This document shows, piece after piece, positions 5,543-50,833 of a DNA stretch of 64,000 bases. Source of the DNA: Nitrospirota bacterium. Lineage in GTDB: Bacteria > Nitrospirota > Thermodesulfovibrionia > Thermodesulfovibrionales > JdFR-86. Made by a program: the position numbers and the translations under genes. The stretch is from positions 160,001 through 224,000 of the forward strand of contig CAVRJY010000002.1 in assembly GCA_963721805.1 (NCBI GenBank), in the 5' to 3' direction. Within the stretch, counting starts at the first letter, position 1. Each line of letters starts with the position of its first letter. The notes below the pieces were generated by a model. It saw only the letters and a list, made by a program, of their open reading frames with translations, was not told where the DNA came from and searched no databases.

Positions 5543-5731
5543 CAAAGCGCTCCAAATCGCTTGATACGTCGTTGGGCTTCGAAGACTCGCCCTCGAAGTA
5601 CGTCTCAGTACGTCGTCGGGCGGTCTTCTCGCCCTGCCTTGTCTGAAGACGATTTGGGCGCGCTTTCGGGGGTGGGAAAAAGGAGGGGGCCAGTCGGCCC
5701 CGCCCCCCGGCCCCCCGAGGTCAACGGCATT
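5543..5731 (-). repeat. Palindromic intergenic element family A, copy 1
   Basis: Highly similar to 42477-42652 and the reverse complement of 50658-50833; long imperfect hairpin 5544-5666; ends in GTCAACGGCATT. Confidence 0.9.
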
Positions 5732-5741
5732 GATTGAATAT

Positions 5742-5806
5742 GAGCGGGGAAGGGGCCCCGTGAATAAGTGAGCGAAGCGATTAGAAGAGGTGCCCGTGGC
5801 ACCCCC
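5742..5806 (-). repeat. Short intergenic element family B, copy 1
   Basis: 18-mer GGGGGTGCCACGGGCACC (5789-5806, minus strand) identical to 63707-63724; similar downstream hairpin layout. Confidence 0.55.
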
Positions 5807-5833
5807 CCCGGCCATCGTGAGATGGCCGGGGGG
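5803..5833. terminator. GC-rich hairpin downstream of the repeat lipoprotein gene
   Basis: CCCCCCGGCCATC-GTGA-GATGGCCGGGGGG perfect stem; no clear U-tail. Confidence 0.45.
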
Positions 5834-5846
5834 AAGGGGCTTCAGG

Positions 5847-7250
5847 TTATTTGTAGATGCTCATGAACGTCTGGATGCTCGTGGCGTCGGACTGGTCCCA
5901 TGTGATGAGGGCGGTGCCGTGGTCGCTCATCGCGACCTGTACGTCATGGGTGTCCTGCCCGTCGGGGCTGATGTTGTCCGTAAGGGCGGAGGGGTTGGTC
6001 CATGCCCCACTTCTGTATTCGCTCTTGAAGATCTGCAAGGTCGTGCCGTCACTCTGCGGCCAGGTGATGATCGCGTTTCCGTTGTCGTCCATCGCGACCT
6101 GGGGGATCGTGGTGTTCTGACCTGCTATGCTGATGTGATCCGTAAGCGAGGAGGGGTTCGTCCACGAGCCGCTTCTGTACTCGCTCTTGAATATCTGCGT
6201 GTTCGTGCCGTCGTACTGCTGCCAGGTGATTATCGCGTTTCCGTTGTCGTCCATCGCGACCTCAGGATAAACCGCGTTCTGCCCGTCGGGGCTTATGTAA
6301 TCCGTAATCAGCGGGTTGGCCCATGCGGCGCTTCTGTACTCGCTTTTGTAAATCAGGTAGTTTGAGCCGTTGTATTGTGTCCATGTGATGATCGCGTTTC
6401 CATTGTTGTCCATCGCGACCTCGGGCTGCCCGGCGAGTTGCCCGTCGGGGCTGATGTTATCCGTAAGAGAGGAGGGGTCGGTCCATGCTCCGCTTCTGTA
6501 TTCGCTCTTGAAGATCTGCGTGGCCGAGCCGTCGGACTGCTCCCAGATTATGATCGCGTTTCCGCTTGCGTCCATCGCGACCTTGGCGTAGCTGGCGTCC
6601 TGCCCGTCGGGGCTGATGTTGTCAGCGAGGTTGGCCGGGTTGGTCCATGTGCTGCCGTCGTATGTGCTCCTGTAGACCTGCTGGTTCGAGCCGTCGGGCT
6701 GAAGCCAGGTGATGACCGCGGTCCCGTCGTCGGACATCGCGACCTGCGGGTTGCCGGTATGCGTCCCGTCCGGGCTGATATTATCCGAAATGCTGGCCGG
6801 GAACGTCCACGATCCGCTACGGTACTCGGCCTTGAATACCTGATAGAACGAGCCGTCGTACTGGCTCCATACGATTATCGCGTTGCCGTTGTTGTCCATC
6901 GCGACCATCGGCGAGACGGACGTGTGCCCGTCGATGCTGACGATATCGGCGAGGCTGGCGGGCGTGGTCCATGAGCCGCCCCGGTACTCGGCCTTATATA
7001 TCTGGGTCTCGACTCCATCGTTTTGGTACCATACGACTATCGCGTCTCCGCTGTTGTCCATCGCGACCTGCGGAAAGTGCACGTCCTGCCCGTTGGGGCT
7101 GAGGTTGTCAGTAAGCGATGAGGGATTCGTCCATGCGGCTGATGAGCCGCCGCTGTCGCTGCTGCTGCTGCCCGTGCAGCCGACCGCAAAGGTCAAGAGC
7201 ATCAGAGCCAATACCGCAATTAACGAACGGACAATCCTGATTTTAACCAT
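5847..7250 (-). CDS. Predicted lipoprotein with eight ~54-aa tandem repeats (probable beta-propeller)
   Basis: Signal peptide with lipobox FAVG-C, Ser-rich linker, eight repeats of WTNPxxLxDNISPDG...PQVAMDxxGNAIIxWxQ...IFKSEYR; GGGGAGA RBS before ATG 7250. Confidence 0.85.
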   Translation of the reverse strand: MVKIRIVRSLIAVLALMLLTFAVGCTGSSSSDSGGSSAAWTNPSSLTDNLSPNGQDVHFPQVAMDNSGDAIVVWYQNDGVETQIYKAEYRGGSWTTPASLADIVSIDGHTSVSPMVAMDNNGNAIIVWSQYDGSFYQVFKAEYRSGSWTFPASISDNISPDGTHTGNPQVAMSDDGTAVITWLQPDGSNQQVYRSTYDGSTWTNPANLADNISPDGQDASYAKVAMDASGNAIIIWEQSDGSATQIFKSEYRSGAWTDPSSLTDNISPDGQLAGQPEVAMDNNGNAIITWTQYNGSNYLIYKSEYRSAAWANPLITDYISPDGQNAVYPEVAMDDNGNAIITWQQYDGTNTQIFKSEYRSGSWTNPSSLTDHISIAGQNTTIPQVAMDDNGNAIITWPQSDGTTLQIFKSEYRSGAWTNPSALTDNISPDGQDTHDVQVAMSDHGTALITWDQSDATSIQTFMSIYK

Positions 7251-7381
7251 ATCTCCCCCCGAACGCGCTGGATTTAAACTGCCGCGTATTATGGACAGTC
7301 CCGGAATAAATTGCAAGCACAATATATTAATTCAAATTACCAGCCTTAGACTCCGCCGGGGCGTTGTGATAGAATTTTCAT

Positions 7382-8185: not shown

Positions 8186-8186
8186 G

Positions 8187-8783: not shown

Positions 8784-8784
8784 T
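8755..8784 (+). promoter_or_regulatory. Sigma70-type promoter of the leuA leader
   Basis: TTGACA (8755-8760), 18-nt spacer, TATAAT (8779-8784). Confidence 0.8.
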
Positions 8785-8790
8785 TGGATC

Positions 8791-8932
8791 ATGTACGCGC
8801 GCGCGATATCAGAGAGGCGACTTAGCGGAGCCGGGAGGCTCTATCTGCCCGCTATCGCCCGCTGCACCTGAATCGCAGCAGAGATAGCAACGGATAAGGC
8901 CACGGCGCTTAAGCCCGTGGCCTTTTTATTTT
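8791..8932 (+). promoter_or_regulatory. Candidate transcription attenuator upstream of leuA (26-codon leader ORF 8791-8871 plus terminator 8896-8932)
   Basis: Leader MYARAISERRLSGAGRLYLPAIARCT*, mutually exclusive stems, then hairpin AAGGCCACGG...CCGTGGCCTT followed by a T-rich tail. Confidence 0.6.
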
Positions 8933-8959
8933 GATGACCAGATAATCAGGGAGGCATAT

Positions 8960-10473
8960 ATGACAGAGGCAAGACGCATCAGGATATTCGACACCACGCT
9001 CCGTGACGGCGAGCAGTCGCCCGGCTGCTCGATGACCGCGGAGGAAAAGCTGCTGATCGCCAAGCAGCTTAGCCGCATGGGCGTGGACATCATAGAGGCC
9101 GGGTTCGCGATCAGCTCGCAGGGCGACTTCGACTCGATCAAGCGCATAGCCAATGAGGTCGCAGGGGCCGGTGATATGCTCGCTCGCGCGCGCGAAGGAG
9201 ATGGACATCAAGCGCGCGTACGAGGCGATCAAGGACGCGCCCAAGCGGCGCATCCATACGTTTCACTCGACCTCGGACATCCACCTCAAGTATCAGGTCA
9301 AGATAGACCGCGCCGAGGCGCTTAAGCGCTCGGTCGAGATGGTCAAGCTCGCGCGCTCTCTGGTCGAGGACGTCGAGTTCTCGCCGATGGACGCGACGCG
9401 GACGGATACCGGATACCTCTGCGAGGTCGTAGAGGCCGTGATCGCGGCCGGGGCGAGCACCGTGAACATCCCGGACACCGTCGGATACACCCTGCCCGAG
9501 GAGTTCGGGACGCTCATCGCATACGATCAAGGAGCGCATCGGAGACAGCGCGATCATCGCGGTGCACTGCCACAACGACCTCGGGCTCTCGGTCGCTAAC
9601 TCGCTTAGCGCGGTGCTAAACGGCGCGGGGCAGGTCGAGTGCACGATCAACGGGATAGGCGAGCGCGCCGGGAACTGCTCGATGGAGGAGGTCGTGATGG
9701 CGCTGCGCACGCGGCGGGACTTCTATCAGGCCGACACCGGCATCCGCACCGAGGAGATCATCAGATCGAGCCGCCTGCTGACGAAGATCACGGGCATAGA
9801 GGTGCAGCCCAACAAGGCTATAGTCGGGGCCAACGCGTTTAGCCATGAGAGCGGGATACACCAGGACGGCCTTCTCAAGGACAAGTCCACGTACGAGATT
9901 ATCCGGCCAGAAACTATCGGGTTGGTTAGCACTAAATTGGTTTTAGGAAAGCACTCGGGGCGGCACGCGTTTAAGGACAGGCTCACCGAGCTTGGGTATA
10001 CGCTGACGCCCGATGAGATCGAGGCCGCGTTCGTGAAGTTCAAGCACCTCGCGGACCAGAAGAAGGACATCTTTGACGAGGACCTGGAGGCCATAGTCTC
10101 GGACGAGCTTCACCGCCCGAACGAGCTGTACACGCTAAAGAAGCTCGATATCTCTTGCGGCACCGAGCATAAGCCGGTCGCGACCGTTGCGATCACGACG
10201 CCGGAGGGCGAGAAGAAGATCACCTCGGAGGGCGACGGCCCGGTGGACGCGGCGTTTAAGGGCATCGCGGAACTCACGGGCACTAAGAGCAGGCTGCTGA
10301 AGTTCGAGGTCAAGAGCGTCACGGGCGGGATGGACGCGCTGGGCGAGGTGATGGTATCGCTGGAAGAGGACGGAAAGACCGTCCGGGGCGTCGGGGCGGA
10401 TACGGATATAATCGTTGCGTCCGCGAAGGCGTATCTCACCGCGATAAATAAATTAGCTGCGAGGACGTGCTGA
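8960..10473 (+). pseudogene. leuA: 2-isopropylmalate synthase, split by two +1 frameshifts in this sequence (probably assembly errors)
   Basis: [40 protein letters not shown] and GKHSG lie in three consecutive frames; extra bases near 9161 and 9525. Confidence 0.92.
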
Positions 10474-10637
10474 GAAAGCCGCGCTAAATTGGCTGATACT
10501 GCGTCACGGCTGCGGCCCCAATCCTCAACGTACGTCACAGTACGCCTCCGGTTGTGGTCCTCGCCGTTCCTTGTCTGAGCATAATTTATCGCGCTTTGGT
10601 GATGCCAGCGCTCCATGAGCGAGCGGTCAACGGCATT
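10474..10637 (-). repeat. Palindromic intergenic element family A, copy 2 (divergent subtype)
   Basis: Shares GATACTGCGT, GTAC-N6-GTAC, CCTTGTCTGA, CGCGCTTT and GTCAACGGCATT with the other copies; stems are different but still complementary. Confidence 0.8.
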
Positions 10638-10721
10638 AACTGATGTGCGCTCCTGCTAGTTGTGCGTCCGCGCAATAAAATATTGTCGTTTGCAATATAT
10701 ATGAGTTGTGTCCCTAATTAT

Positions 10722-11507
10722 CTACTTAAATAGTCCTTCAATTGCGGGCCCAATCTGACCCCATACAGTTGAAAGATTTGACGCTACGGCCAACATTTGT
10801 AAGGACGTATTGATTAGTCCGTTCTTTCTTGTTTCCTTTGGTGTTTCATATTGCGTCACAAGATATTCAACATGTTCCATTTGCTCCTTTATTTCCGTGT
10901 CACTCATTTTCGATTCTTTAATTGCAGTAAGAAGCTTGTCAAACAGTTCAGCGTCAGCGATGCTTGTTTCCTTCATTTTTTCAATATGTCCGTGAATAGA
11001 TCCATAGACCGTTCCAGTATTAATTGCGCCTACATCCCCACGTACGTTAATTACTGTTCCGCCATGTGACGGGATTTCTAGCTTCAACTCTTCCTGCATA
11101 ATATTTATTTTGTTTGCTATACGCGACGAATATTTCAGCTTATCGCGTTCACAGCTTTTAGCGAAAGCTTGCTTCGCCATCTCAGGGACCATATGGAGGG
11201 AAATTCGAGAATAAGCCGCCTCGATGAATCCATTGGCAATCCTAATAAATTCACCATTTAGTGTTTCATAATAAGCTCCCGATGGTAGTGAGGCCGCTCT
11301 TGATAATGCAGTCTTCTCGGCGGATAATAGTTTATCCAACAATTCATCCAAATACTTTTTTCCAATTTCGATGAGTTGGGATGAGAATGGCCCGCTATGA
11401 TGTCCTCTACTTGCCTCTGAGTCAGCCGCCTGCTCACATTCCTCATTAATTTGTTTGAAGTATTGTTCCACTAGTATCTCAGATTGCATTCTAGTATAAG
11501 CTTGCAT
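10722..11507 (-). CDS. AT-rich hypothetical protein (261 aa)
   Basis: Long open frame in AT-rich DNA; GGAGG RBS before ATG 11507; no family recognised with confidence. Confidence 0.75.
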   Translation of the reverse strand: MQAYTRMQSEILVEQYFKQINEECEQAADSEASRGHHSGPFSSQLIEIGKKYLDELLDKLLSAEKTALSRAASLPSGAYYETLNGEFIRIANGFIEAAYSRISLHMVPEMAKQAFAKSCERDKLKYSSRIANKINIMQEELKLEIPSHGGTVINVRGDVGAINTGTVYGSIHGHIEKMKETSIADAELFDKLLTAIKESKMSDTEIKEQMEHVEYLVTQYETPKETRKNGLINTSLQMLAVASNLSTVWGQIGPAIEGLFK

Positions 11508-11582
11508 GGCAACCTCCAATGTAAGAGAAATAGTACAACAGATACATTCTTTTCTCTGATCGTAAAATAACATATTTGACCG

Positions 11583-11609
11583 CATACCACAACACCCCGG
11601 AACTGGTCA
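11583..11609 (+). repeat. 27-bp direct repeat, left of the TA module
   Basis: CATACCACAACACCCCGGAACTGGTCA; 24/27 identical to 12314-12340. Confidence 0.8.
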
Positions 11610-11632
11610 GCAGAACATCGCACCTCGCCAAC

Positions 11633-11653
11633 TTATAACGTATATGTTATAAT
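11633..11653 (+). promoter_or_regulatory. TA operon operator overlapping an extended -10 box
   Basis: Palindrome TTATAAC-GTATAT-GTTATAA overlapping TGnTATAAT, 5 nt before the toxin ATG. Confidence 0.7.
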
Positions 11654-11658
11654 TAACC

Positions 11659-12015
11659 ATGGACTGGACGGTGGAGTTTTACCGCGACTCCAAAGGCGGT
11701 GAGCCGGTGGCGGAGTTCCTCGATGTGCTTCCGGTTGAGCCGAGGGCCAAGGTGCTTAGGCTCATGGAGTTGCTTGCGCGCTACGGTGTTCTGCTCAAAG
11801 AGCCGCATACGAAGCAGATACGCGGCAAGATACGGGAGCTGCGCGTGACGGACAGCATCGGGGCCGTGCGCGTGCTCTACTTCGGGCATACGGGAAAGCG
11901 GCTTATTCTGCTGCACGGGTTTGTGAAGAAGTCAGACAAGACGCCGCAAAAAGAGATAGACATTGCCGAGCGGAGGATGCGCGATTTCCTCGACCGGCAG
12001 GGAGGTATCAGATGA
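11659..12015 (+). CDS. Type II toxin, RelE/HigB (Gp49-like) family
   Basis: WTVEFY...PVAEFL, EPHTKQIRGKIRELR, ILLHGFVKKSDKTP..EI..A..R. Confidence 0.92.
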   Translation: MDWTVEFYRDSKGGEPVAEFLDVLPVEPRAKVLRLMELLARYGVLLKEPHTKQIRGKIRELRVTDSIGAVRVLYFGHTGKRLILLHGFVKKSDKTPQKEIDIAERRMRDFLDRQGGIR

Positions 12016-12308
12016 AGGGCAGGACGTTAAGCGAGTACATCGGACAGCAGAAGAAAAGCCCCGAGTTTCGGAAGGCGTGGGAAAATCTAGACCCCGAATT
12101 CGAGCTTATGGAGAGCCTGCTTAAGGCGCGTCAGCGCTCCGGGCTTACGCAGGCCGAGCTTGCGGAGAAGATAGGCACCAAGCAGCCCGCCCTTTCGAGG
12201 CTTGAGCGCGGGGGGTTCAGGAAGGCGACGGTCGAGACCCTGCACAAGATAGCGGACGCGCTTGACGTAGAGCTGGTCGTGAAGCTTCAGCCCTCGCGCA
12301 AGCATTAA
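12012..12308 (+). CDS. XRE-family HTH antitoxin (HigA-like)
   Basis: ARQRSGLTQAELAEKIGTKQPALSRLERG; ATGA overlap with the toxin gene. Confidence 0.92.
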   Translation: MKGRTLSEYIGQQKKSPEFRKAWENLDPEFELMESLLKARQRSGLTQAELAEKIGTKQPALSRLERGGFRKATVETLHKIADALDVELVVKLQPSRKH

Positions 12309-12313
12309 CCCCC

Positions 12314-12340
12314 CATAGCATAAAACCCCGGAACTGGTCA
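12314..12340 (+). repeat. 27-bp direct repeat, right of the TA module
   Basis: CATAGCATAAAACCCCGGAACTGGTCA; matches 11583-11609. Confidence 0.8.
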
Positions 12341-12397
12341 ATAGGAACTGGTTCCTAGGAACCAGTTCCCAGGAATCGGTTCCCATGGACGCGTTCC
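12330..12397. repeat. Tandem array of 14-bp palindromic units (consensus GGAACnnGTTCC)
   Basis: GGAACTGGTCAATA GGAACTGGTTCCTA GGAACCAGTTCCCA GGAATCGGTTCCCA plus a degenerate fifth unit; units 2 and 3 form a perfect 26-bp palindrome. Confidence 0.75.
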
Positions 12398-12608
12398 GCC
12401 AAGAAGTTCTATCCTCAGCCATGATGTATATAGTAGACATATTAAAGAGGCCGGAAAACCGGGAGGCCGCATGGAAAACGTTTCTGAACGCCTAAACACG
12501 GGGGCGGTCAAATAAATGCGAAATTCCGAAGGGTTGAGGCATGTTTTGAATTTTCATTTGAACGCTATAAAAAAATCGCGCGTGTCCGGGCGCGGAATGT
12601 ATATAACG

Positions 12609-12772
12609 ATGCCGTTGACAGCTCGCACGATTATGCAGGACTACACCAAAGCGCGAGAAATCGTCTTCAGACAAGGAAGCGTGAGAAAATCGTCCCGCAA
12701 GTGTACTGAGATGTACTCTGGAGGGCGATTTTCGAGCGATGACGCAGTATCAAGCGATTTGGCGCGGCTTTC
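12609..12772 (+). repeat. Palindromic intergenic element family A, copy 3 (divergent subtype)
   Basis: ATGCCGTTGAC...CAAAGCGCG..AATCGTCTTCAGACAAGG...GTACTGAGATGTAC...ACGCAGTATCAAGCGATTTGGCGCGGCTTTC. Confidence 0.85.
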
Positions 12773-12847
12773 CAGCTCGCGTGTAAACCAACTAACCCTC
12801 TATGTTATTATTTATGCTTAATCTCAAGCTAAGGAGTTGATACCATT

Positions 12848-18025: not shown

Positions 18026-18037
18026 GGAGCATCCGCC

Positions 18038-38938: not shown

Positions 38939-38946
38939 GCCCCGGA

Positions 38947-40164: not shown

Positions 40165-40508
40165 TGACCCGCCACCGACGCCCCCGCCCGGCCGAGCCCC
40201 CGGTGCCCGATGAGCGGCGCATGACCGTGCGGCGCGAGATCACGGAGCTGCTCGGGCGCGGCGCGTTCACCACGCGGCAGATCTCGCTTGAGCTCCGCGT
40301 GCCGGAGCGCGAGGTCGAGGACCACCTGCTGCACATACGCCGCACGCTCGGCCACGGCCGCGCGCGGTTTGAGGTCACGCCTTCGGAGTGCGAGGACTGC
40401 GGGTTCGTATTTACGAAGCGCGAGCGCCTCTCGATGCCGGGCCGCTGCCCTTCCTGCGGCGGGACGCGCATCACCGGGCCTGCGTTTAGCATCCGCGCAA
40501 TCGAATAA
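40164..40508 (+). CDS. Winged-HTH plus zinc-ribbon putative transcriptional regulator (COG3357-like)
   Basis: TVRREITELL...EREV.DHL.HI.RT, P.ECEDCGFVF..R.RL..PGRCPSC; ATG overlaps the MFS stop. Confidence 0.8.
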   Translation: MTRHRRPRPAEPPVPDERRMTVRREITELLGRGAFTTRQISLELRVPEREVEDHLLHIRRTLGHGRARFEVTPSECEDCGFVFTKRERLSMPGRCPSCGGTRITGPAFSIRAIE

Positions 40509-40546
40509 TATCTATACGTTTTATCCATAAACGTTTATAATAGGCG

Positions 40547-42454
40547 ATGCCATTAAACAGACGCTCCGATTGCCGTTTTGAGGTCAGGCACATCGGGCTC
40601 CCGCAGGAATGGGAGATCGTGGAGTTGTCGCGCGCGGGTGCGCTGATCGTAAACCGCGCGGCTGAGTTCGCCGAGCCCCCCGAGCCGTTTGCAGTGCAGA
40701 TAGGCCCGCTTGTGCTGCAGGCCCGCCCGATATGGGTCAGGGGCGCCGAGATGGGCGTGGCCTTCACCCCCGGCATCGAGGACGTCAAGGTCCCGAGGAT
40801 CTTCGCCTTGCGGCCGCACGACGAGAGCTTCCCCGCCATGATACAGATACCGGCCGACGAGTTCTCGAAGTACAGCGCCGAGGACACGATCTGCACGCTC
40901 GTAAACTTCATGGTCGAACTCGACAGCCCCTCTACGGACATCAACAAGCTCAAGAGCTTCATCGAGCAGATCGGCGAGCTGGGCTCCGGCGATGACGCCG
41001 CCGCTGCCGAGCCGCCACAGGCCGAACCGCCGGAGGGCAAGCCAAAGCCCCTGCCGCCGAGTTCGAGGCTGCTCAAGCAGGTGCTGATGGACAAGGCCTG
41101 CGAGGGCGGCCGCTGCGAGGGCGTAAACGAGGTCAACATAGATTTCGCGATCTCCCTCCTTGGGCTCGAGCAGCTGAAGTCCGTCACGCGCGGCTTCGCG
41201 CAGAAGAAGCTCGCGCAGGTCAGCTCCTCGATGAAGAGCTTTAAAAGCTACAGCGCGTACACGACGCTCAAGACCGTGCTCTTTAACCGCATCTCGCAGC
41301 TCTTCGGCTACCAGGACCCGGATGGCGAGGGGGCCTCGATACTCCAGTTCGAGACCGCCGGGATCGAGGCCCTGATCAACCGTTCCAGCGGCGTACTCGA
41401 TGCCTACTACACCTCGGCCACGCGCGTCTACAGCAACATGTCGCGCCGGTACGAGCGCGCCCTGTTCGGCAAGGACCTCATCGAGGTCAACCGGCACTTC
41501 TTCGATAACCTCGGCGAGTTCGACGCGATGTACGGCGGGTACGTCATGGCCCACCAGGCCCTGAACATGCAATACCTGCCATCGCCCGAGCTGAAGATCA
41601 CGATCAACAAGGACGCTCTTAATTTCTCGCTCGTCGCTCACATGACCTTCCTGGGCCTGAAGTTCGCTATGGACCGCGACCGCGTCTCGGGGCTCATCCT
41701 GATACAGAAGCTCATGGGCCGCGGCCTGAACTCCACCAAGGCCGGCGACTTCGTCAACGACTGCGTGAGCGAGGCCAACAAGGTGCTCGACGACTTCGGG
41801 ATGAAGGGCAAGATAGGCGTGGCCTCACCCCCGCCGAAGTCCTCGATAGTGCTCAAGTACCTCCCGGAGACCCCGAGGTACAAGCACATTATAGACACCT
41901 TCCGGAACTTCGAGCAGTCGCAGAGCCGGCGGCTCGCGCTCCGGTACGAGGACTCCTCATACGCGCACTTCATTCTCAGGCGGCTCATAAACGACCCCGA
42001 CTGCCTGCTGAGCCGCCGCGCGAGCTGCGTGGTGCCCTGCGCCAACCTCTCGGAGCGGCCGCTGTACCTCGACGACTTCTCGAACTTCGACCTGCTGATA
42101 TTCAAGGACATCGACCGCCTGCCATCAAACCACGTGCGCGACTTCATCAGGATATGGAACTCCTTCGAGGGCTCGATAGTCGTGACGTTCGACAAGTTCA
42201 GCTTCATCGACTACACGCTCAGGCCGCTCTATACGATCCTCAAGGACAACGTGGTGGACTTCCCCTCGTATTTCGCCGAGGACGAGACTTACAGGCGCAT
42301 GGTCGGGCACACGCTTGAGTGTCTCGTACCGTATCTGGGCGGGAAGGCCCCGGAGTATGCGGCGCCAGATAATGGCCAGGGGCTGTTTCTTGACCGGGTA
42401 TATACGATGGACTATATCTTCTCGCGCACGTTCCTCACGAAAGAGATTATCTAG
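40547..42454 (+). CDS. Hypothetical protein with PilZ-like N-terminus and a degenerate HDOD-like region
   Basis: 635-aa ORF with host-like codon usage; RRSDCR and ELSRAG resemble PilZ motifs; AISLLGL..LK resembles an HDOD helix. Confidence 0.65.
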   Translation: MPLNRRSDCRFEVRHIGLPQEWEIVELSRAGALIVNRAAEFAEPPEPFAVQIGPLVLQARPIWVRGAEMGVAFTPGIEDVKVPRIFALRPHDESFPAMIQIPADEFSKYSAEDTICTLVNFMVELDSPSTDINKLKSFIEQIGELGSGDDAAAAEPPQAEPPEGKPKPLPPSSRLLKQVLMDKACEGGRCEGVNEVNIDFAISLLGLEQLKSVTRGFAQKKLAQVSSSMKSFKSYSAYTTLKTVLFNRISQLFGYQDPDGEGASILQFETAGIEALINRSSGVLDAYYTSATRVYSNMSRRYERALFGKDLIEVNRHFFDNLGEFDAMYGGYVMAHQALNMQYLPSPELKITINKDALNFSLVAHMTFLGLKFAMDRDRVSGLILIQKLMGRGLNSTKAGDFVNDCVSEANKVLDDFGMKGKIGVASPPPKSSIVLKYLPETPRYKHIIDTFRNFEQSQSRRLALRYEDSSYAHFILRRLINDPDCLLSRRASCVVPCANLSERPLYLDDFSNFDLLIFKDIDRLPSNHVRDFIRIWNSFEGSIVVTFDKFSFIDYTLRPLYTILKDNVVDFPSYFAEDETYRRMVGHTLECLVPYLGGKAPEYAAPDNGQGLFLDRVYTMDYIFSRTFLTKEII

Positions 42455-42476
42455 GCCGCTTCCGAGCGTCTTTCTT

Positions 42477-42652
42477 CAAAGCGCTCCAAATCGCTTGATA
42501 CTGCGTTGGGCATTCAAAGACTCGCCCTCTATGTACGTCCCAGTACACCATCGGGCGGTCTTCTCGCCCTGCCTTGTCTGAAGACGATTTGGGCGCGCTT
42601 TCGGGGGGCACGGACGAAGGACGCCCCCCGCGCCCCACGAGGTCAAAGGCAT
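42477..42652 (-). repeat. Palindromic intergenic element family A, copy 4
   Basis: Near-identical to the reverse complement of 50658-50833; ends in GTCAAAGGCAT. Confidence 0.9.
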
Positions 42653-43054
42653 GTTCTGATGTCCGCGCTTAGGTATAGTTACGCATTCCGCGCGCATGCG
42701 CGCGCGTTTTTGCAGTTTTTGTTCGGATGCTGGGCGTAAAAACGCGGCTAACTTCCTGAAAAACCTCATTAGTTTGTCAGCCCAATGTTCGGATGTTCGG
42801 ATAAAAACCGCGCTTTTTGGCCCATTATCCGAACAAGCTATCCGGCCTCCCGCTGCCTCTGTCCAGCCCGTTAAACATGACGCTATCATGCTCATGCCAC
42901 CACTATACACCAAAGAATGCCAAACTTTGGTTTATATATAAACCTAAGTTGATAGGAAAAATTAGGGGCCATGCGTTTTCTACTAACTTACGATTAACTA
43001 TAGTTAGTTATTTATGCTAACATGCAAATAGTTTTAATTATTGGAGGGTAATAA

Positions 43055-44191
43055 ATGAGCAAGACTGTTTTTATATTAGGTGCGGGCTTTTCGGCTCCGG
43101 CAGGTATTCCGGTGCAGGACAAAATAATGACTGCTGTTCCACAATCCGTGCGTGATAGGAAATATTTTAATCATGTCACCAAATATTATTCTGATATTTT
43201 CAGGATTGAAAAAATCACAGATTATGGGAAGATTCCGCTTGAAGATATATTTACATTTTTTGATCGCGCTATTGCAAATGGGGAAGATACTAATGCTTTT
43301 TCCTATCGCGACACAATACAGATTCAAAGAGCCTTTAGAAAGACAATCGCTATGGTTATCTACAATAGCATGCGCTTATTTGTTGAAGATGAATCAAAAG
43401 GCGATATTAGAAATGCATACAGCGATTTTTTTAGTGAAGTGGTAGCGAAAAGGATTGAAAACAATGCAAATGACTATGACCCGCTAGCTATATTAAGTAC
43501 AAACTGGGACACATTGCCTGAATATTTCATCCAACTGATAGAAAAGAAGTTAAAAAGGAAAATAATGTTTGACTATTGTTGTTATGATTATGACTATTTC
43601 GAGAGGAAGGAGAAACATACACCATCAATTCATCTGAAGGCTAAAGGTTTTTATAATATTAAAATACATAAATTGCATGGCTCTCTGAACTGGAGCTATT
43701 GCTCTAATTGCGGAAGGTTGTGGCTGAAGCTTCGCAGTAAGTTCCCTCCTGTATTCTTCGAGAAACAGGCAAACAATTGTCATAATTGTGAAAACGTGCG
43801 GTTACGTCGGTTATTAATAATGCCGACGATGCTTAAAGATATAAATAACACCCATCTAAAAATGGTTTGGCATAATGCCCTGATGGATCTTCAAGAAGCA
43901 GAGAGAATATTTTTCATCGGTTATTCCTTTCCTCTTGCTGATTTTGAATTCAGGTATATGCTTGCCAAAGCTATCGCAGGTGGAAAACGAAAAAAAGTTC
44001 GTGCAATATTATATCCGCCAGATAAGGCTCAAGGTCATTTTCTGAGACTGGGTGATTATAAGAAAGCGCTCATGATAAGGGATGATACAGCAGAGCGATA
44101 TTGTAACTTTTTTGGTGGGCATGATTTTCAGTGTAAATATATGGATGTAATAGATGTTATGAAAAAACCTGATATTATCTGGGATTGGTGA
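43055..44191 (+). CDS. SIR2-like (SIR2_2) domain protein, AT-rich
   Basis: VFILGAGFS..AGIP, STNWD, KLHGSLNW, CSNC...CHNC, IMPT..K, FIGYSFP..D; GGAGG RBS. Confidence 0.85.
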   Translation: MSKTVFILGAGFSAPAGIPVQDKIMTAVPQSVRDRKYFNHVTKYYSDIFRIEKITDYGKIPLEDIFTFFDRAIANGEDTNAFSYRDTIQIQRAFRKTIAMVIYNSMRLFVEDESKGDIRNAYSDFFSEVVAKRIENNANDYDPLAILSTNWDTLPEYFIQLIEKKLKRKIMFDYCCYDYDYFERKEKHTPSIHLKAKGFYNIKIHKLHGSLNWSYCSNCGRLWLKLRSKFPPVFFEKQANNCHNCENVRLRRLLIMPTMLKDINNTHLKMVWHNALMDLQEAERIFFIGYSFPLADFEFRYMLAKAIAGGKRKKVRAILYPPDKAQGHFLRLGDYKKALMIRDDTAERYCNFFGGHDFQCKYMDVIDVMKKPDIIWDW

Positions 44192-44216
44192 TAAGAATCG
44201 TGGAGTTTAAGCTCGA

Positions 44217-45236
44217 CTAAAACAAGCTCTGCGGTATCTTGATGCCGAGATGTTCGTACGCCCCGCGCGTTGCCATGCGGCCGCGTGGCGTGCGTTCTAT
44301 CATCCCTACCTGAAGCAGAAACGGCTCGCAGACGTCTTCCAAGGTATCGCGCTCCTCGCTCAGGGATGCGGCCAAGGTCTCAATACCGACCGGCCCGCCG
44401 CCGAACTTCTCGATCATGCATCTTAAGAACTGCCGGTCGAGGTCGTCGAGTCCCAAGTGGTCGATCTCGAGCGACTTAAGCGAGCTTTGTGCCATCTTTA
44501 TGTCGATGGACCCGTCGCCGAGCACCTCGGCGAAGTCGCGTACGCGCCTCAGGAGCCGGTTTGCTATGCGCGGCGTGCCGCGCGACCGGCCTGCTATCTC
44601 AAGCGCCGCGTCCGGCGTAATCTTCGTTCCCAGTATCGCGGCCGATCTGATTACGACCCGCTTCAGTTCCTCCGGAGAGTAGAACTCAAGGCGGCTTACC
44701 ACCCCGAAGCGCGCACGCAACGGAGAGGTCATCAGGCCCGTTCTGGTCGTCGCGCCGATCAATGTAAACCTCGGAAGGTTGAGCTTGAGGCTCCGGGCGT
44801 TCGGCCCTTGGCCTATGATGATATCTAGCTGGTAGTCCTCCATCGCGGGGTAGAGCACCTCCTCGACGACGCGCGAGAGGCGGTGTATCTCGTCGATGAA
44901 CAGGATGTCGAACTCCTGCAAGTTCGTGAGTATCGCGGCAAGGTCGCCCTGCCGCTCGATCACCGGGCCGGAGGTCGACCGGATGTTGACGTTGAGTTCC
45001 GAGGCTATGATGTGCGCGAGCGTGGTCTTCCCCAGGCCCGGAGGGCCATAGAAAAGGACGTGGTCTAGCGCCTCTTTGCGCTTCGCCGCGGCCTGCAGGA
45101 ATACGCGCAAGTTTTCCTTGAGCTTGCCCTGCCCTACGAACTCCTCGAAGCTCCGGGGCCGGAGGCTGAGTTCCAGCGCCGAGTCCTCGCCCTTAAGCTC
45201 GGGGGCTACGGGGCTGTCGTCTTCGCGCCTAGCCAA
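44217..45236 (-). CDS. ruvB: Holliday junction branch migration helicase RuvB
   Basis: [49 protein letters not shown]. Confidence 0.98.
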
Positions 45237-45822
45237 GCTGCGACCCGCCGGTGAGGTGCTTGAGGGTTTCCTTAATCAGCGCCTCAACCGTATCCTCGGC
45301 GCGGCCGCGCACGGCCTCGAGGGCCTCGATAGCCTCGGCCTTCTTATACCCGAGGTTAACGAGCGCGGAGAGGGCGTCCTCGTATGCGCTGCCGTATTGG
45401 GTCGGGCTTGCTGACTCATCCGTCGGGAGCTTGCCCTTCATCTCAAGCACGATGCGCTGGGCGGTCTTCTTCCCCAGGCCCGGCACCTTGGCGAGCGCCG
45501 CGGCGTCCCCGGCCTCTACGGTGCGGACGAAGGCCTCGACCGACATAGATGAGATCACGTTCATCGCGACCTTCGGGCCGATGCCGGATATCGCGGTGAG
45601 GGCCAGGAACATGCGCTTCTGTTCCTCGTCTACGAAGCCGAAGAGCTGTAGCGCGTCCTCGCGCACGTGGGTGTGGATGAACAGGAAGACCTCGCGGCCC
45701 TCGGGGGGGAGCGAGGCGAGCGTCCCGGTAGGTACGGTGACCAGATATCCGACGCCGCCGGCCTCGACGAGCACGCCCTGCGGGGACTTGTGCGTAAGCC
45801 TTCCCCGCAGAGAGCCGATCAC
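45229..45822 (-). CDS. ruvA: Holliday junction DNA-binding protein RuvA
   Basis: [39 protein letters not shown]. Confidence 0.97.
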
Positions 45823-46415
45823 TGAGCGGCCACCGCCTTGTTGAATGAATCCCGCTGCATGTGGCAGAGGCAGAGCGCGAGCGCGTCGGCGCTGTCGGCC
45901 GAGAGCTCGCCCTTATAGTTCAGGAGCTTCTTGACCATCTCGGCGACCTGTTCCTTCTCGGCCCTGCCGTTTCCGGTGACCGCCTTCTTGACCTCGACCG
46001 CGGTGTACTCCGCGATCTTGAGCCCGGCGATCGAGGCGGTGACCAGTATCGCGCCGCGCGCGTGGCCAAGCCCCAGCGCCGCCCTCACGTTATGCGAGAA
46101 GAAGATCTTCTCTATCGCTGCCTCGGTTGGGCGGTACTGCTCGATCACGGACTCGAGTTCCGTGTGCAGCTCGGCCAGCCGTTCGTGCAGAGGCTTCTTG
46201 CCCGCCGTGAGGTCGATCCTGCCCGAGGCCACGTACGTCCCGTTGCCGTCGACGATCCCATACCCGCAGTACCGCGTGCCGGGGTCTATCCCGATGATTC
46301 TGCGGGGGCCGGAGGCCATGCTTCGCGGCCTAGCGGCAGGGGCCGCAGCGGCTGCCTCTGTCTTTTCCTCAGGCTTTTCCTGAGGCTTCTTTGAAAACAT
46401 GTCAAATATGCCCAT
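45819..46415 (-). CDS. ruvC: Crossover junction endonuclease RuvC with an N-terminal extension
   Basis: IIGIDPG, AIE.IF, LGHARG, EY...VKKAVTG.G.A.KEQV, D.ADALA. Confidence 0.95.
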   Translation of the reverse strand: MGIFDMFSKKPQEKPEEKTEAAAAAPAARPRSMASGPRRIIGIDPGTRYCGYGIVDGNGTYVASGRIDLTAGKKPLHERLAELHTELESVIEQYRPTEAAIEKIFFSHNVRAALGLGHARGAILVTASIAGLKIAEYTAVEVKKAVTGNGRAEKEQVAEMVKKLLNYKGELSADSADALALCLCHMQRDSFNKAVAAQ

Positions 46416-46449
46416 AGTGTGAAATTATACCTCAGGGGGGCGGGATTTT

Positions 46450-48078
46450 TCAGTCGGAGCGCTTCGGGCCTAAGATGGAGATGCCCTCGAGGCTGCGCTT
46501 ATCTGCGGGGTCCATCCTGAGGGCCCTCTCGAAATACCCGCGCGCGCGCGCCGGATACCCCAGTTCGAGGAAGACATGCCCGCTCTCGGCCAGGTACTGC
46601 GGGTTCTGGGGGTCGAGGCTCAGCGCTTTGCGGTACTCGGCCTCGGCCTCCTTGAGCCTGCCTGCCTTGTGGTGGAGCTGCCCCAGCGCGAAGTGGAACT
46701 GGTGGACCCCGGGGCTGAAATCTATCGCCTCGTTAAACGCGCGCGCCGCCTCATCGAGGCGTCCGCGGCGGAACGCCTCCCTGCCTTCATCGAATTTCCT
46801 GTTGGCCTTAGAGGCCGGGTCGTGCATGGCCGCGACGCCGGCGAGGCCCTCGCGGTCATATACGCCCCGCAGCGCGTCGTCGTTAAGCGTGTTGTAGGCC
46901 GACGTGATGAATGCGAATATCTCGTTGAGCTTCTCCCTGACGTGCTCGTCCAGCGAGACGTGGCGGTCCGGGTGGAACTCCACGACCTTCGCGTAGAATG
47001 CCCTCTTTATATCGGCCTTCGAGGCGCCCTTGTTGAGGCCCAGCACGCCGTAATAGCCGAGCTCGCGGAGGTTGGAGTGCAGCGCGAGCGCCCGGTCCGC
47101 GAACTCGTCCTCTCCGCCGCCCTCCCGCGGATAATCTATCAGCCCGATGAGCGAGGCCGCATGCAGGACCTTGATCACGCGCTGCTCATCGGCCGGGTGC
47201 GCGGCGAGTATCTCTGCCGCGCTCGAGCGGCCGTTGCAGGCGGTCAGCACCTCGCGAGCCTCCTCCGGGATGCAATTGCAATCCGCCCCCGTAAGCGCGG
47301 GCACGCCGGATGCCTCAGGCCGCATGGATTCTATCTGGCCGGGATCCGTGATGCTCATGACTCCTACGAAGATCAGCTCCGGGGTCGGGATGCCGATCGG
47401 GTTTAACCGGGCCGGGCGCTGAGAGTCCTCGACGAGCACGAACTGCCCCTCCCGGAGCTGGAAGAAGCCGCATATGACCGCCCGTGCGCTCTCGCCGACG
47501 GCCTCGATCACGTCCTCCCGCCTGATGCCTCCCGCCGAGGAAAATATTTCTATAGGCGGCTGCCCGGTGAGCTTCTCGACAGCGGCGGCCTGCCCCATCT
47601 GGGCGGCTGTGATGAGCCCCCGGTTGGCGAGCATCGCCGCCGGCGACTCCCAGGCGCCGTTGGACGTGGCCGCTGTGACCTTCCCCTCGCTCAGGTAGAT
47701 CTTCCTCTGGAGCTTGCCGCTCGTGACATAGAGTATGCCGCTTCGGCCGCTGCGGTGCAGGCCCGCCAGGATGTCGGGGGCCGCGAAGTCGCGCAGCTGG
47801 CCGCTCAGCTGCCCGGTCCTGTCGAGGCCGAGCCGCAGCGCGCCTCCGCGCGCCTTGCGCTTCCATACCACGCGGCCGCTGCAGCGGATGCCCAGCTCCG
47901 CTGACGTGACGCTGACCCTCTCGCCGACCTCCACGCCCGGCGCGCCGCCGTCCAGCTCTGCGCAAAAACCGCCCAGGGAATAATCCACTATCTCGGCCGC
48001 ATGGCGTTCGCCCGCGATCTCGAGTTCTGTAAGGACCTTTCTATTTCTGCGCGTGAAATTTCTCCGGTCGCCGCTCAT
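46450..48078 (-). CDS. PilZ-DUF4388-J domain-TPR protein
   Basis: RRNFTR and DYSLGG (PilZ); G.LRDF...DIL..L...GRSGIL (DUF4388); YYGVLG...FHPD...I..AY.TL (J domain); TPRs. Confidence 0.8.
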   Translation of the reverse strand: MSGDRRNFTRRNRKVLTELEIAGERHAAEIVDYSLGGFCAELDGGAPGVEVGERVSVTSAELGIRCSGRVVWKRKARGGALRLGLDRTGQLSGQLRDFAAPDILAGLHRSGRSGILYVTSGKLQRKIYLSEGKVTAATSNGAWESPAAMLANRGLITAAQMGQAAAVEKLTGQPPIEIFSSAGGIRREDVIEAVGESARAVICGFFQLREGQFVLVEDSQRPARLNPIGIPTPELIFVGVMSITDPGQIESMRPEASGVPALTGADCNCIPEEAREVLTACNGRSSAAEILAAHPADEQRVIKVLHAASLIGLIDYPREGGGEDEFADRALALHSNLRELGYYGVLGLNKGASKADIKRAFYAKVVEFHPDRHVSLDEHVREKLNEIFAFITSAYNTLNDDALRGVYDREGLAGVAAMHDPASKANRKFDEGREAFRRGRLDEAARAFNEAIDFSPGVHQFHFALGQLHHKAGRLKEAEAEYRKALSLDPQNPQYLAESGHVFLELGYPARARGYFERALRMDPADKRSLEGISILGPKRSD

Positions 48079-48159
48079 CGCGATATTATACCCCACCGCC
48101 GCGTGAGGATGAAGCCCATAAAACGGCCCGGCAGTAGGCGAGCCCGGCAAAAATTGGCC

Positions 48160-48189
48160 TTGACAAAACCAAGGACGGTCGTTTAGTGT
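48160..48189 (+). promoter_or_regulatory. Putative sigma70 promoter of hup
   Basis: TTGACA, 18-nt spacer, TAGTGT. Confidence 0.5.
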
Positions 48190-48248
48190 ATTTCTAACTT
48201 AATTCTGCTTGCATCCAACCAAAGCTATACGGAAAGGAGGGGGATAAC

Positions 48249-48521
48249 ATGACAAAGGCTGATTTGATCGAGAAGGTCGCAACGGGCACGGGTCTCAGCA
48301 AGGCCGACGCCGGAAGGGCGCTGGATTCCGCCATCGATGCGGTCAAGGCATCTTTAAAGAAAGGCCAGAAGGTCACGCTGGTAGGTTTCGGCACTTTCTC
48401 GGTATCCAAGAGAAAGGCGCGCAAGGGCCGCAACCCGAGAACCGGCGAAGAGATAAAGATTGCCGCCACGAAGACACCCAAGTTCACCGCGGGTAAGGTT
48501 CTCAAAGACGCGATAAAGTAA
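48249..48521 (+). CDS. hup: HU family DNA-binding protein
   Basis: [37 protein letters not shown]. Confidence 0.97.
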
Positions 48522-48544
48522 CTGGGTCTTGGCGAAGGAAATTT

Positions 48545-48582
48545 AACGGGGCGGGGAGGGTTCATCTCCCGGCCCCGTTTTC
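48545..48582 (+). terminator. Intrinsic terminator after hup
   Basis: AACGGGGCGGGGAG...CTCCCGGCCCCGTT followed by TT. Confidence 0.7.
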
Positions 48583-48786
48583 ATTCTATCACTCGAAGCC
48601 TGCCGGATAATCTCTGAAGCAAGTTTTGATTTTCCCTGCCCGCCGGCGTTCAAGGAGGCTGTTGCATGCCGTACTGGTGACGATAGTCGCCATGAGGGTT
48701 TACGCACTTTTCTTGGTGACTTCTTTTGTGCGAGCAAAAGAAGTTACTGCTGGGCGCGGGGGCGCAGAGCATCCCGCATCAATCCC

Positions 48787-49995
48787 CTAAAAAACGCTGA
48801 CCTTTCCGTATTCGCCGTCGAAGCCCGCTTCAAGGCTCACCTCGCCGCCCCTCATGCGCCCGATGCCCCCTGCGATCTCGGGGCAGCACGCTGACGCTAT
48901 CTCATCCAGGGGTGCATCAAGAAGGATATGAAACTCGCTGCCCAGCGCCCCAAGCATGTCCATGTATGCGTTCCTGACCCCCTTGGTGTTCACGCCGCGC
49001 CCCATATGCTCGGCGATGATCTCCTCAAGCGGCACTATGTACCTAAATCCGTCGGGCTTCGGCTCCTCGCGGTCGGCCAGCAGTTCCACGCGGTGCAGCA
49101 CGCCCATAGTCAGCCGCCTGCCGCATACGGTGCAGATGCCCTTGAGCGGGATCGTCTCTCTGGGCGTGAGGCTCACGCCGCACTTGCGGTGGCCGTCGTT
49201 GTGGTACTTCCCCTCCTCGGGGAAGAACTCTATCGTGCCGCGGTATCCCTCGCGCGTGCGCAGGGCGCGGATGAACTCGGGGTACGAGCGTCCGCAATCG
49301 AACAGCGTCGCCTCGCGACCGAGCTTCGCCGGGGAGTGCGCATCGGAGTTCGAGACGAGCGTGATCCTGTCGAGCCCGGAGAGCCTGCGGTTCATCGAGG
49401 GGTCCGAGGAAAGCCCGGTCTCTATCGCGTGGATATGGGGCGCGAGGTCCCCGTAGCACTCCTCGAGCGAGTCAAACCCGGAGACCGCCCCGAATACCGA
49501 GAAGTGCGGGGTCCAGGCATGGGCCGGTATGACCTCGATCTCCGGTGATACATCGAGGCATATCTCAAGGAGCCGCCTGGCGTCGAGACCGAGGATCGGA
49601 CGGCCGTCGGAATGTATGTTGCCGATGGCCGCGAGCCTCTTGTTAAGCTTGTGGGCCTCCCTGAAGCCGGGCGCCAGAAGCAGCGAGTGGACCTTGCGGG
49701 TGCGGCCGCCCTTTGAGTATATCGAGCTTATCTCGGCCGTGAGGATGAAGCGCACCTCCGCGCGGCAGCGCTCCGGGACGTCCGCCGTCTCCAGCGGCGG
49801 CTTGAGCTTATATAGCCCCTCCCCGGCCGGCGTGAGCTTTTCCTTGAGCTCCGCGATCCATCCGGGGTGGGTGAAGTCGCCGGTGCCGATGACCTCAATG
49901 CCCTTAAGCTGCGCCCAACGCCATATCGCCTCGGGCCGCATCTCCGGGCTCGTCGCGCGCGAGTATCTGGAATGCACGTGCAGGTCCGCTATCAT
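48787..49995 (-). CDS. Endonuclease Q family / TIGR00375 PHP-domain protein
   Basis: [67 protein letters not shown]. Confidence 0.9.
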
Positions 49996-50074
49996 CAGCC
50001 ATTATAGCCGATACGGGCCGCCGCGCTCCTCTATGGTAAAATATTACGTTCGCTATTTAAGGGGGCATGTCAAT

Positions 50075-50659
50075 ATGGAAGATCTCAAGGAAAAGGGCAG
50101 GGCGCTGATGGAGGGCTCGGTGAACAGCCTCCTGGGCGTGCTCGAGCGCGAACGGTACGCCGAGATGCTCGGCGAGGCCGCCTCGGCGATAGCCGGGTGT
50201 TTCAAGGCTGGCGGCAAGCTCCTGATATTCGGCAACGGCGGCTCGGCGGCCGACGCCCAGCACATCGCGGCCGAGTTCGTAGGGCGGTTCAAGCTCGAGC
50301 GCCCCGGCCTGCCTGCCATCGCGCTTACGGCCAACACCTCGGTGCTCACCGCATGGAGCAACGACTACGAGTTCGAGACCGTGTTTTCGCGCCAGGTACA
50401 GGCGCTCGGCATCAAGGGCGACGTGGCGTGGGGGATCTCGACGAGCGGCAACTCCCCGAACGTCGTCGCGGCGCTTAGGAAGGCGCGCGAGCTTGGGCTG
50501 GTAACGGTCGGCCTGAGCGGAAACGGCGGGGGCAGGATGGCATCTCTCTGCGACATAAACCTCACCGTGGCCACCAAGGACACGCCGCGCATACAGGAGG
50601 CCCACCTCGTGGGCTACCACATCATCTGCAAGCTTGTAGAGGACGCTTTATACGGTTAA
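50075..50659 (+). CDS. gmhA: D-sedoheptulose 7-phosphate isomerase
   Basis: [41 protein letters not shown]. Confidence 0.96.
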
Positions 50660-50833
50660 TGCCATTGACCGCGTGGGGCGCGGGGGGCGTCCGCTTTTCG
50701 TGCCCCCCGAAAGCGCGCCCAAATCGTCTTCAGACAAGGCAGGGCGAGAAGACCGCCCGATGGTGTACTGAGACGTACATAGAGGGCGAGTCTTTGAAGC
50801 CCAACGCAGTATCAAGCGATTTGGAGCGCTTTC
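50658..50833 (+). repeat. Palindromic intergenic element family A, copy 5
   Basis: AATGCCATTGAC...GAAAGCGC..CCAAATCG...GTACTGAGACGTAC...CGATTTGG.GCGCTTTC; overlaps the gmhA stop codon. Confidence 0.9.

Follow-up and report, generated by a model that had tools for sequence, protein, structure and literature searches.

What keeps a long, bulged hairpin intact at several intergenic sites of one bacterial genome, and how did it come to stand there? The question is raised by a stretch of 64,000 nt from a Nitrospirota bacterium (GenBank assembly GCA_963721805.1, contig CAVRJY010000002.1, positions 160,001 to 224,000), in the following called the window. It corresponds to C2:160001-224000 of the source genome (G000), which comprises 2.78 Mb in 9 contigs with 60% GC and is 94% complete. 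An initial annotation had described the hairpins, termed rods below, as part of a five-copy family and had proposed selection on a single-stranded fold as well as possible mobility. Both proposals are supported by the present analysis, the five-copy scale is not. With somewhat better than even confidence, we assign the copies to a large family of non-autonomous mobile repeats resembling transposable elements of the miniature inverted-repeat type (MITEs), which carries a structured module under selection on one strand, probably at the level of RNA.

The covariance model R1 matched all five copies of the window at 132-155 bits, and their coordinates and strands proved correct. Alignment with MAFFT likewise reproduced the described layout, in which a variable spacer separates the ATGCCNTTGAC head from the rod. 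The copies can be aligned over their full length, share the head motif A(T/A)GCCNTTGACC and contain a rod of about 122 nt; further rod-like BLAST matches do not occur in the window. For the genome as a whole, however, five copies are a large underestimate. BLAST with these copies gave 861 high-scoring segment pairs; once merged, they define 222 places that are spread over six contigs and add up to 33,083 bp or 1.19% of the genome; 184 of the places are at least 100 nt long. A motif-anchored search revealed 151 intact rods of 122±1 nt (122 nt in 93 cases, 121 or 123 nt in 46), and R1 returned at least 150 genome matches at 111-165 bits. Pairwise divergence among 138 rods has a median of 23% (5th to 95th percentile 5-35%), and clustering yields many small subfamilies in which stem variants appear in mosaic combinations.

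Similarity between the copies stops sharply at the 3' side, about 10 nt past GCGCTTT, whereas the 5' side is ragged and modular. The head motif is present in all copies and is followed by one of two spacers, either a short one (GCTCGCACGAT...) or a G-run/C-run hairpin of variable contents. A "long module" of about 360 nt precedes about 56 copies, complete in 36 of them and reduced to its 3' half in about 20. In this module the ATCCGAACA motif recurs, AT-rich palindromes are present, and the antisense strand carries a GC hairpin with a T-run. Other copies, as seen in many rod flanks, for example on contigs C4 and C1, show an upstream hairpin followed by TCACT, similar to the right end of the resident insertion sequence (IS) IS200 (...CCACGGGGAGCTTCACT). 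This upstream module may be a relic IS200-type end that was fused to the repeat.

Each rod of the window is predicted to form one long hairpin with identical internal loops. Folding energies as RNA range from -44.5 to -61 kcal/mol with z scores of -3.0 to -7.6 against dinucleotide shuffles; as DNA, either strand gives z scores of -3.4 to -5.6. The compensatory differences that had been noted on comparing copy 2 with copy 3 are genuine and prove to be general across the family. Within the genome, 40 copies chosen for diversity were aligned with MAFFT and compared with a hand-drawn structure of 39 pairs. Both sides were changed in 20 of these pairs (118 cells), 82.4% of the cells pair compared to 75.2% in shuffles, and the covariation score is 0.215 (shuffled 0.104); none of 500 shuffles reached any of these values, slid controls giving at most 0.087. 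Among four genera of the same family, compensation was found in 34 of 38 pairs, with a score of 0.414 versus 0.138. In a phylum-wide set of 38 sequences, compensation extends to 36 of 38 pairs (388 cells), 87.0% of the cells are paired versus 60.4%, and the score amounts to 0.653 versus 0.185; again none of 500 shuffles was as high. The shuffle counts are not to be read as probabilities, given that the sequences share ancestry and that fitting to the model produced the alignments A3-A6. From the phylum-wide alignment RNAalifold predicted 36 pairs unaided, 31 of them with compensatory change. The fold is maintained by compensatory change on one strand across the whole phylum.

Among the unpaired or special positions, CAAGG in the 5' arm and RAC-GNNGYA in the 3' arm are constant, as is the upper motif CCG-GA-GGCGUA...UACGUU-GA-GG, which includes a GA-rich 3x2 loop as well as a tandem G·U; the two wobble pairs of the latter are kept in 31 and 32 of the 38 phylum-wide sequences. 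On the opposite strand this element would be a tandem A·C mismatch. Within the genome 198 G·U cells stand against 84 A·C cells, a count dominated by few columns. Of 151 rods, 130 are more stable as the sense strand than as the complement (mean -55.7 versus -51.1 kcal/mol), and one copy scored 164 bits with R1 on the sense strand compared to 32 bits for the reverse complement. Tandem G·U, G·U excess, stability and bit scores therefore point to selection on the strand oriented as in the initial annotation. Together with the covariation within the genome and the phylum, the tandem G·U and the stability of the sense rods lend strong support to the selection on a single-stranded fold that had been proposed there. 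The conserved tandem G·U leans towards RNA, although it is compatible with single-stranded DNA too. Of the purine-rich bulges described for one strand only, CAGACAAGG agrees with the description, but the opposite bulge GACGCAGTATCA is of mixed composition.

Outside the source genome the family escapes simple sequence comparison: BLAST with copy 5 gave no match in 40 relatives, and related rods were found by the covariance models only. Within the own family, R1 found rods in 4 of 11 genomes, namely in the source genome, G002 (17 matches), G003 (26) and G006 (13). The model R2 marked 16 of 101 genomes of the order as positive, with 3/9 in family f1, 3/9 in f2, 4/9 in f3, 5/9 in f4 and none in f5-f13. 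In a sample of the phylum, 24 of 151 genomes were positive with R2 at E<=1e-8, among them members of other orders (f22 11/11, f23 7/18, f18 2/7). Nearly every positive genome holds several copies, for example 49 in G067. Presence of the rod is patchy and differs between sister genera, in keeping with gain and loss.

The rod takes a MITE form in two other genera. The genomes G067 and G002 contain it within elements of 175-216 nt bounded by terminal inverted repeats (TIRs) of 18 nt; the 15-nt core of the TIR, with one mismatch allowed, occurs 63+62 and 17+16 times in G067 and G002, respectively, compared to 1/0 and 0/0 for controls. The ends are flanked by TA in 9-10 of 13 cases, and as TA is palindromic it can be a duplication or part of the TIR. 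Other genera do not conserve the head motif, the TIR taking its place in G002 and G067. Since the rod is found both in the units of the source genome described below and in TIR-bounded MITEs, it is thus a module of different mobile contexts. The elements of the source genome also share with classical MITEs that they are short (160-185 nt), non-coding and multi-copy (222 matches). An autonomous IS with the MITE ends was not found, the sole long TIR-bounded element being devoid of a transposase. This element of 1.7 kb (locus L199, 464-2181, on contig C17 of G067) has the 18-nt TIRs of the G067 MITE and encodes a 332-aa signal-peptide protein only. It looks like a mobile insertion cassette because it holds cargo but neither rod nor transposase.

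In the source genome the rods form inverted pairs, the 5' heads of which point at one another. Among neighbors at a distance of up to 3 kb (184 elements of at least 100 nt), 42 pairs are oriented (-,+), compared to 4 (+,-), 8 (+,+) and 10 (-,-), and none of 5000 orientation shuffles reached 42. Plus and minus copies are near equal in almost every 50-kb bin, and the rod-bounded units are sometimes nested. The DNA between the rods has a GC content of 0.454 versus 0.618 in the flanks and was lower in all 43 of 43 units; judged by this composition it is foreign. A Pfam scan of 85 open reading frames (ORFs) from 40 of the 43 units assigned a family to 37 and none to 48. Parts of toxin-antitoxin systems (Gp49/HigB-HTH, MNT-HepT, MazE, Phd, HicB) were found next to a methylase-Mrr fusion, KAP NTPase, SRAP, HNH, kinases and IS200, IS30-like and IS481-like transposases. 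Of 52 adjacent pairs exactly one long or half module is present in 28, none in 24 and two in no case (P = 0.0066). Similarity between the two ends of a unit does not exceed that of random rods (identity 0.775 versus 0.776), a comparison that does not discriminate transposon from non-transposon models. Five head-to-head doublets with only 8-150 nt between the heads (C1:34170-34573, C1:655569-655920, C2:113027-113366, C5:25039-25389 and C6:7058-7368) might represent cargo units in an "empty" state.

Evidence for insertion comes from the unit formed by copies 2 and 3, whose features are listed in Table 1 with those of the other copies. It begins 1 nt past the stop codon of leuA, at the outer (3') end of copy 2, and ends with copy 3, 76 nt before leuC. 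In between follow a 287-aa ORF, a HigB-like toxin, an HTH antitoxin, a palindrome cluster and a half module. The spacing between leuA and leuC is 2,374 nt here, compared to 7-35 nt in G002, G003, G007, G008 and G010; nine relatives were compared, and in the other four leuA lies outside the flank examined. From the adjacency of both genes in five relatives we therefore conclude that the unit is an insertion into the leu operon, which may have arrived in one step or in several. In G006 (locus L144, contig C101) a nucleotidyltransferase-like ORF of the MNT-type antitoxin kind, and not leuA, is found directly upstream of leuC, which hints at an independent uptake of foreign DNA at the same junction. 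The leuA gene itself (8960-10473) is spread over three frames, with positions 1-78, 66-178 and 192-259 of the HMGL-like profile in three ORFs. Either the gene is a pseudogene with frameshifts beside the inserted unit, or indel errors in the assembly have produced this pattern.

Table 1. Rods and associated features in the window (positions counted from its first nucleotide).
Feature	Position	Strand	Remarks
Copy 1	5544-5730	-	R1 152.7 bits; rod 5543-5666, 122-nt; GC-rich spacer hairpin between head motif and rod; RNA fold -61 kcal/mol, z -7.6 (dinucleotide shuffles)
Copy 2	10476-10636	-	R1 132.3 bits; short-spacer form; fold z -3.2; left end of cargo unit
Copy 3	12609-12770	+	R1 138.4 bits; short-spacer form; z -3.0 (RNA), -3.8 (DNA); right end of the copy-2 unit
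Copy 4	42478-42652	-	R1 150.6 bits; GC-hairpin form; fold z -6.7
Copy 5	50659-50832	+	R1 155.4 bits; solo GC-hairpin form; fold z -7.4
Whole rod-bounded unit	10474-12772		rods inverted, heads inward, between leuA and leuC; cargo span 10722-12308
287-aa ORF	10722-11585	-	no Pfam family
Gp49/HigB-like toxin	11659-12015	+	Pfam
HTH antitoxin	12012-12308	+	Pfam
GGAACnnGTTCC palindrome cluster	12344-12369		from sequence; inner side of unit; second repeat family
Half long module (3' half)	12478-12604	+	directly 5' of copy 3; nhmmer, profile positions 200-334
Full long module	42653-43010	-	joined to 5' side of copy 4; nhmmer, profile positions 3-360
Terminator-like GC hairpin with T-run	42689-42706	+	antisense to copy 4, within the long module; consensus scan

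The three remaining copies of the window are intergenic as well. Copy 1 is solo between tgt and a BNR-repeat gene identified with Pfam. The 3' end of copy 4 lies 22 nt from the stop codon of a 635-aa gene (40547-42454); its long module has 20-34 BLAST partners in the genome, and the terminator-like stretch is conserved in a consensus built from 19 long forms. Copy 5 occupies the gap between two genes that are convergent according to the Pfam matches of the neighbors, with its 3' end 10 nt from the stop codon of an epimerase gene (50844-51815, minus strand). The ORF on its other side (49529-50659) is not conserved as a unit, so that it offers no synteny anchor for this copy. Two DNA metagenome runs covering 38000-53000 are uninformative on empty sites, as their contigs are short, none spans a rod and the joints are repeat chimeras. 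In these runs, X1 and X2, the contig depth at 42509-43009 and 50525-51025 is 10-40 times that of neighboring bins, and run X2 contains a relative of about 85-95% identity that likewise carries the repeat.

Insertion into the leu operon, patchy occurrence among genera and TIR-bounded copies in two other genera support the non-autonomous mobile element that the initial annotation had considered. In the mechanism we propose, a transposase acting in trans would insert the copies, although a cognate one was not found among the enzymes searched. The rod would travel as a passenger module and act single-stranded, most likely as RNA in read-through transcripts. Owing to the heads-inward pairing, a transcript leaving the cassette in either direction would cross a rod in sense orientation. 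This geometry leads to the working model that the rod serves as an RNA 3'-end structure or insulator and could make insertions beside host genes tolerable.

Several findings weigh against this reading. Judged by their divergence the copies are old rather than recent duplicates, and a median of 23% is unusual for an active MITE. At the units of the source genome no target-site duplication was found above shuffled controls, nor did its form show TIRs, the match between 5' and 3' flanks being 5.08 nt versus 4.97 nt for shuffled partners. A consensus scan of copy 4 gave neither a sigma-70-like promoter nor a sense-strand terminator. Based on crude ORF calls, a gene whose stop codon faces the 3' end of the rod reads into that end, in antisense to the rod, in 92 of 150 cases (median distance 18 nt, at most 30 nt in 61), and a co-directional gene is present on the 5' side in only 71 of 150, about half. 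In G067 short inverted pairs are absent and the copies are mostly solo, and for this reason the bracketing of cassettes may be special to the source genome. With regard to enzymes, reverse transcriptase (PF00078) and TnpB (PF07282) were not found in the source genome at 94% completeness. Transposases of the IS630 type (DDE_3, PF13358) were not found in G000, G002, G003 and G067 either, though metagenome-assembled genomes may miss IS copies. Y1 transposases show no association with rods; their gene is present in 12 of 16 rod-positive and 60 of 85 rod-negative genomes of the order (72 of 101).

These searches also removed several named candidates. The absence of a cognate enzyme from the window had been claimed before and holds for the 53 window ORFs scanned with Pfam, none of which is a transposase or recombinase. 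For the whole genome, seven PF00589 matches indicate tyrosine recombinases. A TnpB/IscB guide RNA (omega RNA) or a retron non-coding RNA (ncRNA) was discarded because PF07282 and PF00078 were not found in the 94% complete source genome, and an IS630-type transposase as mobilizer of the TA-flanked TIR form on the missing DDE_3 in the four genomes. A Y1 gene was not found in the rod-positive genomes G002, G003, G006 and G035. IS200 was rejected as mobilizer because its ends differ from the rod and Y1 is not associated with rods. The same applies to an IS200/IS605-derived palindrome-associated transposable element, the end hairpin of the resident IS200 (CCCCGTGG...CCACGGGG) being unlike the rod.

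IS200 occurs in six identical copies with a 144-aa Y1 transposase and end hairpins unrelated to the rod (C1:42213-42781, 366501-367100, 1251913-1252481 and 1452061-1452630; C4:138455-139023 and 146420-146988); all six lie within 2.5 kb of a rod, three of them inside rod-bounded units. An IS30-like element of 1,085 bp with a 326-aa HTH_38 transposase is present in seven near-identical copies. Five of these are inserted in rods (C1:387255-388339, C1:649324-650408, C1:759637-760721, C2:367111-368195 and C2:397059-398143), always at one position, just after CAGACAAGG plus 6 nt, and on this account the element appears to be rod-specific; the other two are located at C6:58607-59691 and C1:626589-627673. 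An IS481-like element (344-aa rve transposase) was found in ten near-identical copies with duplications of 5-8 nt, for example at C2:405942-406976 and C1:669775-670809. All ten are inserted in or beside clusters of tandem GGAACnnGTTCC palindromes, of which the genome holds 23, usually on the inner side of rod-bounded units. The clusters may represent a protein-binding array.

An alternative is that the rod is a site acting at the level of DNA. It would then fold in single-stranded DNA and be recognized by a recombinase or transposase, much as integron attC sites or the ends of IS200/IS605 are, with the inverted pairs as the two ends of mobile cassette units capturing foreign genes. A conserved structure with variable stem sequence and conserved, strand-specific unpaired bases would be expected of such a site, and the rods fold as DNA too (z -5.6 and -3.8). 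Units without target-site duplication, with a sharp outer and a ragged inner boundary, in part nested, and filled with cargo like that of integron cassettes (toxin-antitoxin pairs, many ORFs of unknown function) point in the same direction. So do the single ATCCGAACA-bearing long module in 28 units, with none in 24 and two in no unit, and the fixed rod position of the IS30-like element in 5 of 7 copies. A tandem G·T kept throughout the phylum would, however, be weak in DNA and is more typical of RNA. The sites are inverted and dispersed and form no oriented array, the unit ends resemble each other no more than random pairs do (0.775 versus 0.776), no enzyme co-occurs with the rods, Y1 being unassociated, and the rods of G067 lie in the interior of TIR-bounded MITEs and are mostly solo. 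We regard a DNA-level site as unlikely, but as the most serious of the alternatives. Somewhat more doubtful is a further-reaching proposal, according to which the rod is an uncatalogued phylum-wide structured module of RNA or single-stranded DNA that defines a new gene-cassette system, its head-to-head pairs being landing pads or boundaries between which low-GC foreign DNA is captured and insulated. If this were true, the rods would supply homology or recognition for recombination together with a transcript-end structure, and about 50 bracketed cassettes would be present in one genome.

Two other explanations do without mobility as the essential property. The rods could be boundary elements domesticated by the host, which no longer move and which, placed where low-GC foreign DNA begins or ends, would for instance be bound by a nucleoid or silencing protein or stop transcription. 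Their GC content is host-like while that of the cargo is 0.454, they mark the junction of cargo and core genes, a stop codon faces the 3' end in 92 of 150 cases (median distance 18 nt), the long module contains an antisense terminator-like hairpin, and conservation of the fold is of long standing. Placement in a fixed orientation would still need a mechanism, though; the occurrence is patchy among sister genera with TIR-bounded copies elsewhere, and the solo copies 1 and 5 stand between core genes without any foreign DNA, which makes this explanation very improbable to us. The least probable of all is that each rod is an independent small RNA gene with a promoter near the ATGCCGTTGACC head, the rods forming a trans-acting or protein-binding ncRNA family and their dispersal being a by-product. 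The TTGAC motif in the head, the sharp 3' end and the strand-specific fold with its conserved loops, tandem G·U and GA/GA internal loop would agree with such genes. Against them stand the lack of a -10 element at workable spacing and of any promoter-like site around copy 4 (0 found), the head motif that is not conserved in other genera and gives way to the TIR in G002 and G067, the number of 150-200 diverged copies, unlike known small RNA families, and the lack of an Rfam match.

At the gathering thresholds of Rfam 15 the 64-kb window gave 0 matches, and relaxing the threshold to E<=5 over 42400-43100 gave only two chance matches, both outside the rod. Likewise, we found no description of this element in the literature searched, which gave background on MITEs, REPINs, TIMEs and mobile insertion cassettes. 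Because it is absent from Rfam and no description was found, the rod is a candidate for a new class of structured nucleic acids. Public collections, the scans of which may leave out records of the window's own genome, contained a 21-base rod pattern at 2 loci among genome_contigs and 6 among metagenome_contigs, and a core rod pattern at 11 loci among viral_contigs. All of these were assigned to chance, since the BLAST match is limited to the pattern of about 30 nt and R2 gives at most 15 bits for every one of them.

Bacterial repeats of such size are usually treated as short-lived selfish DNA. A fold of 122 nt that is held by compensatory change across a phylum and in differing repeat contexts points to a function of the fold, and the candidate class offers hundreds of natural variants. 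Small low-GC foreign islands of the source genome (toxin-antitoxin, restriction, defence-like, IS) are almost all marked by rods, which provides a handle for recently acquired DNA and a testable model of how insertions beside or inside operons such as leu are tolerated. The rods are apparently also a specific target of the IS30-like element.

How do the rods compare with known systems? The attC sites of integrons are imperfect palindromes defined by structure, with strand-specific extrahelical bases, and stand beside small cassettes rich in toxin-antitoxin genes; they share one orientation and form an array beside intI/attI. The rods are similar in the precedence of structure over sequence, in strand-specific bases and in small cassettes with toxin-antitoxin genes and ORFs of unknown function. 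In contrast, they are dispersed over six contigs as inverted pairs and lack the R/L box pattern. Membership among attC sites was rejected on this dispersal, as no array of the same orientation is formed.

Mobile insertion cassettes and MITE-bounded composites such as IMUs and TIME composites (PMC4133298, PMC4337579) consist of transposase-less passengers between two inverted copies of a short repeat, the known cases having near-identical ends from a named IS and target-site duplications. Genes between inverted repeats are common to both systems, and the 1.7-kb TIR-bounded cargo element of G067 is of such kind. The ends in the source genome differ from these in that they have diverged (0.775 identity on average), measure 160-185 nt, are structured and lack a duplication; about 50 units are present in this one genome.

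ERIC or IRU sequences of enterobacteria and Correia or NEMIS elements of Neisseria are imperfect palindromes that measure about 100-170 nt and occupy intergenic sites, with tens to hundreds of copies. They can form one long hairpin, are co-transcribed with their neighbors and are regarded as MITE-like. The rods resemble them as intergenic, multi-copy long hairpins of MITE-like kind, but have no Rfam or sequence relation to them, covary phylum-wide around fixed loops and, in the source genome, bracket foreign cassettes as inverted pairs without TIR or TA duplication. Background on such repeats is given in PMC3184786 and PMC10969869. For REPINs with their RAYT transposases, PMC3116915 reports long-lived hairpin repeats within a genome, inverted doublets and compensatory change in the hairpin. 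REP units measure 20-40 nt, whereas the rod has 122 nt and is asymmetric. Membership in the REP/REPIN-RAYT system was rejected, as the only Y1 genes of the source genome belong to the six identical IS200 copies with different end hairpins and show no association with rods over 101 genomes. Closest in kind to the rods are the hairpin MITEs of the ERIC/Correia type and the REPINs, from which they differ in their phylum-wide structure, their fixed loops and the bracketing of cassettes.

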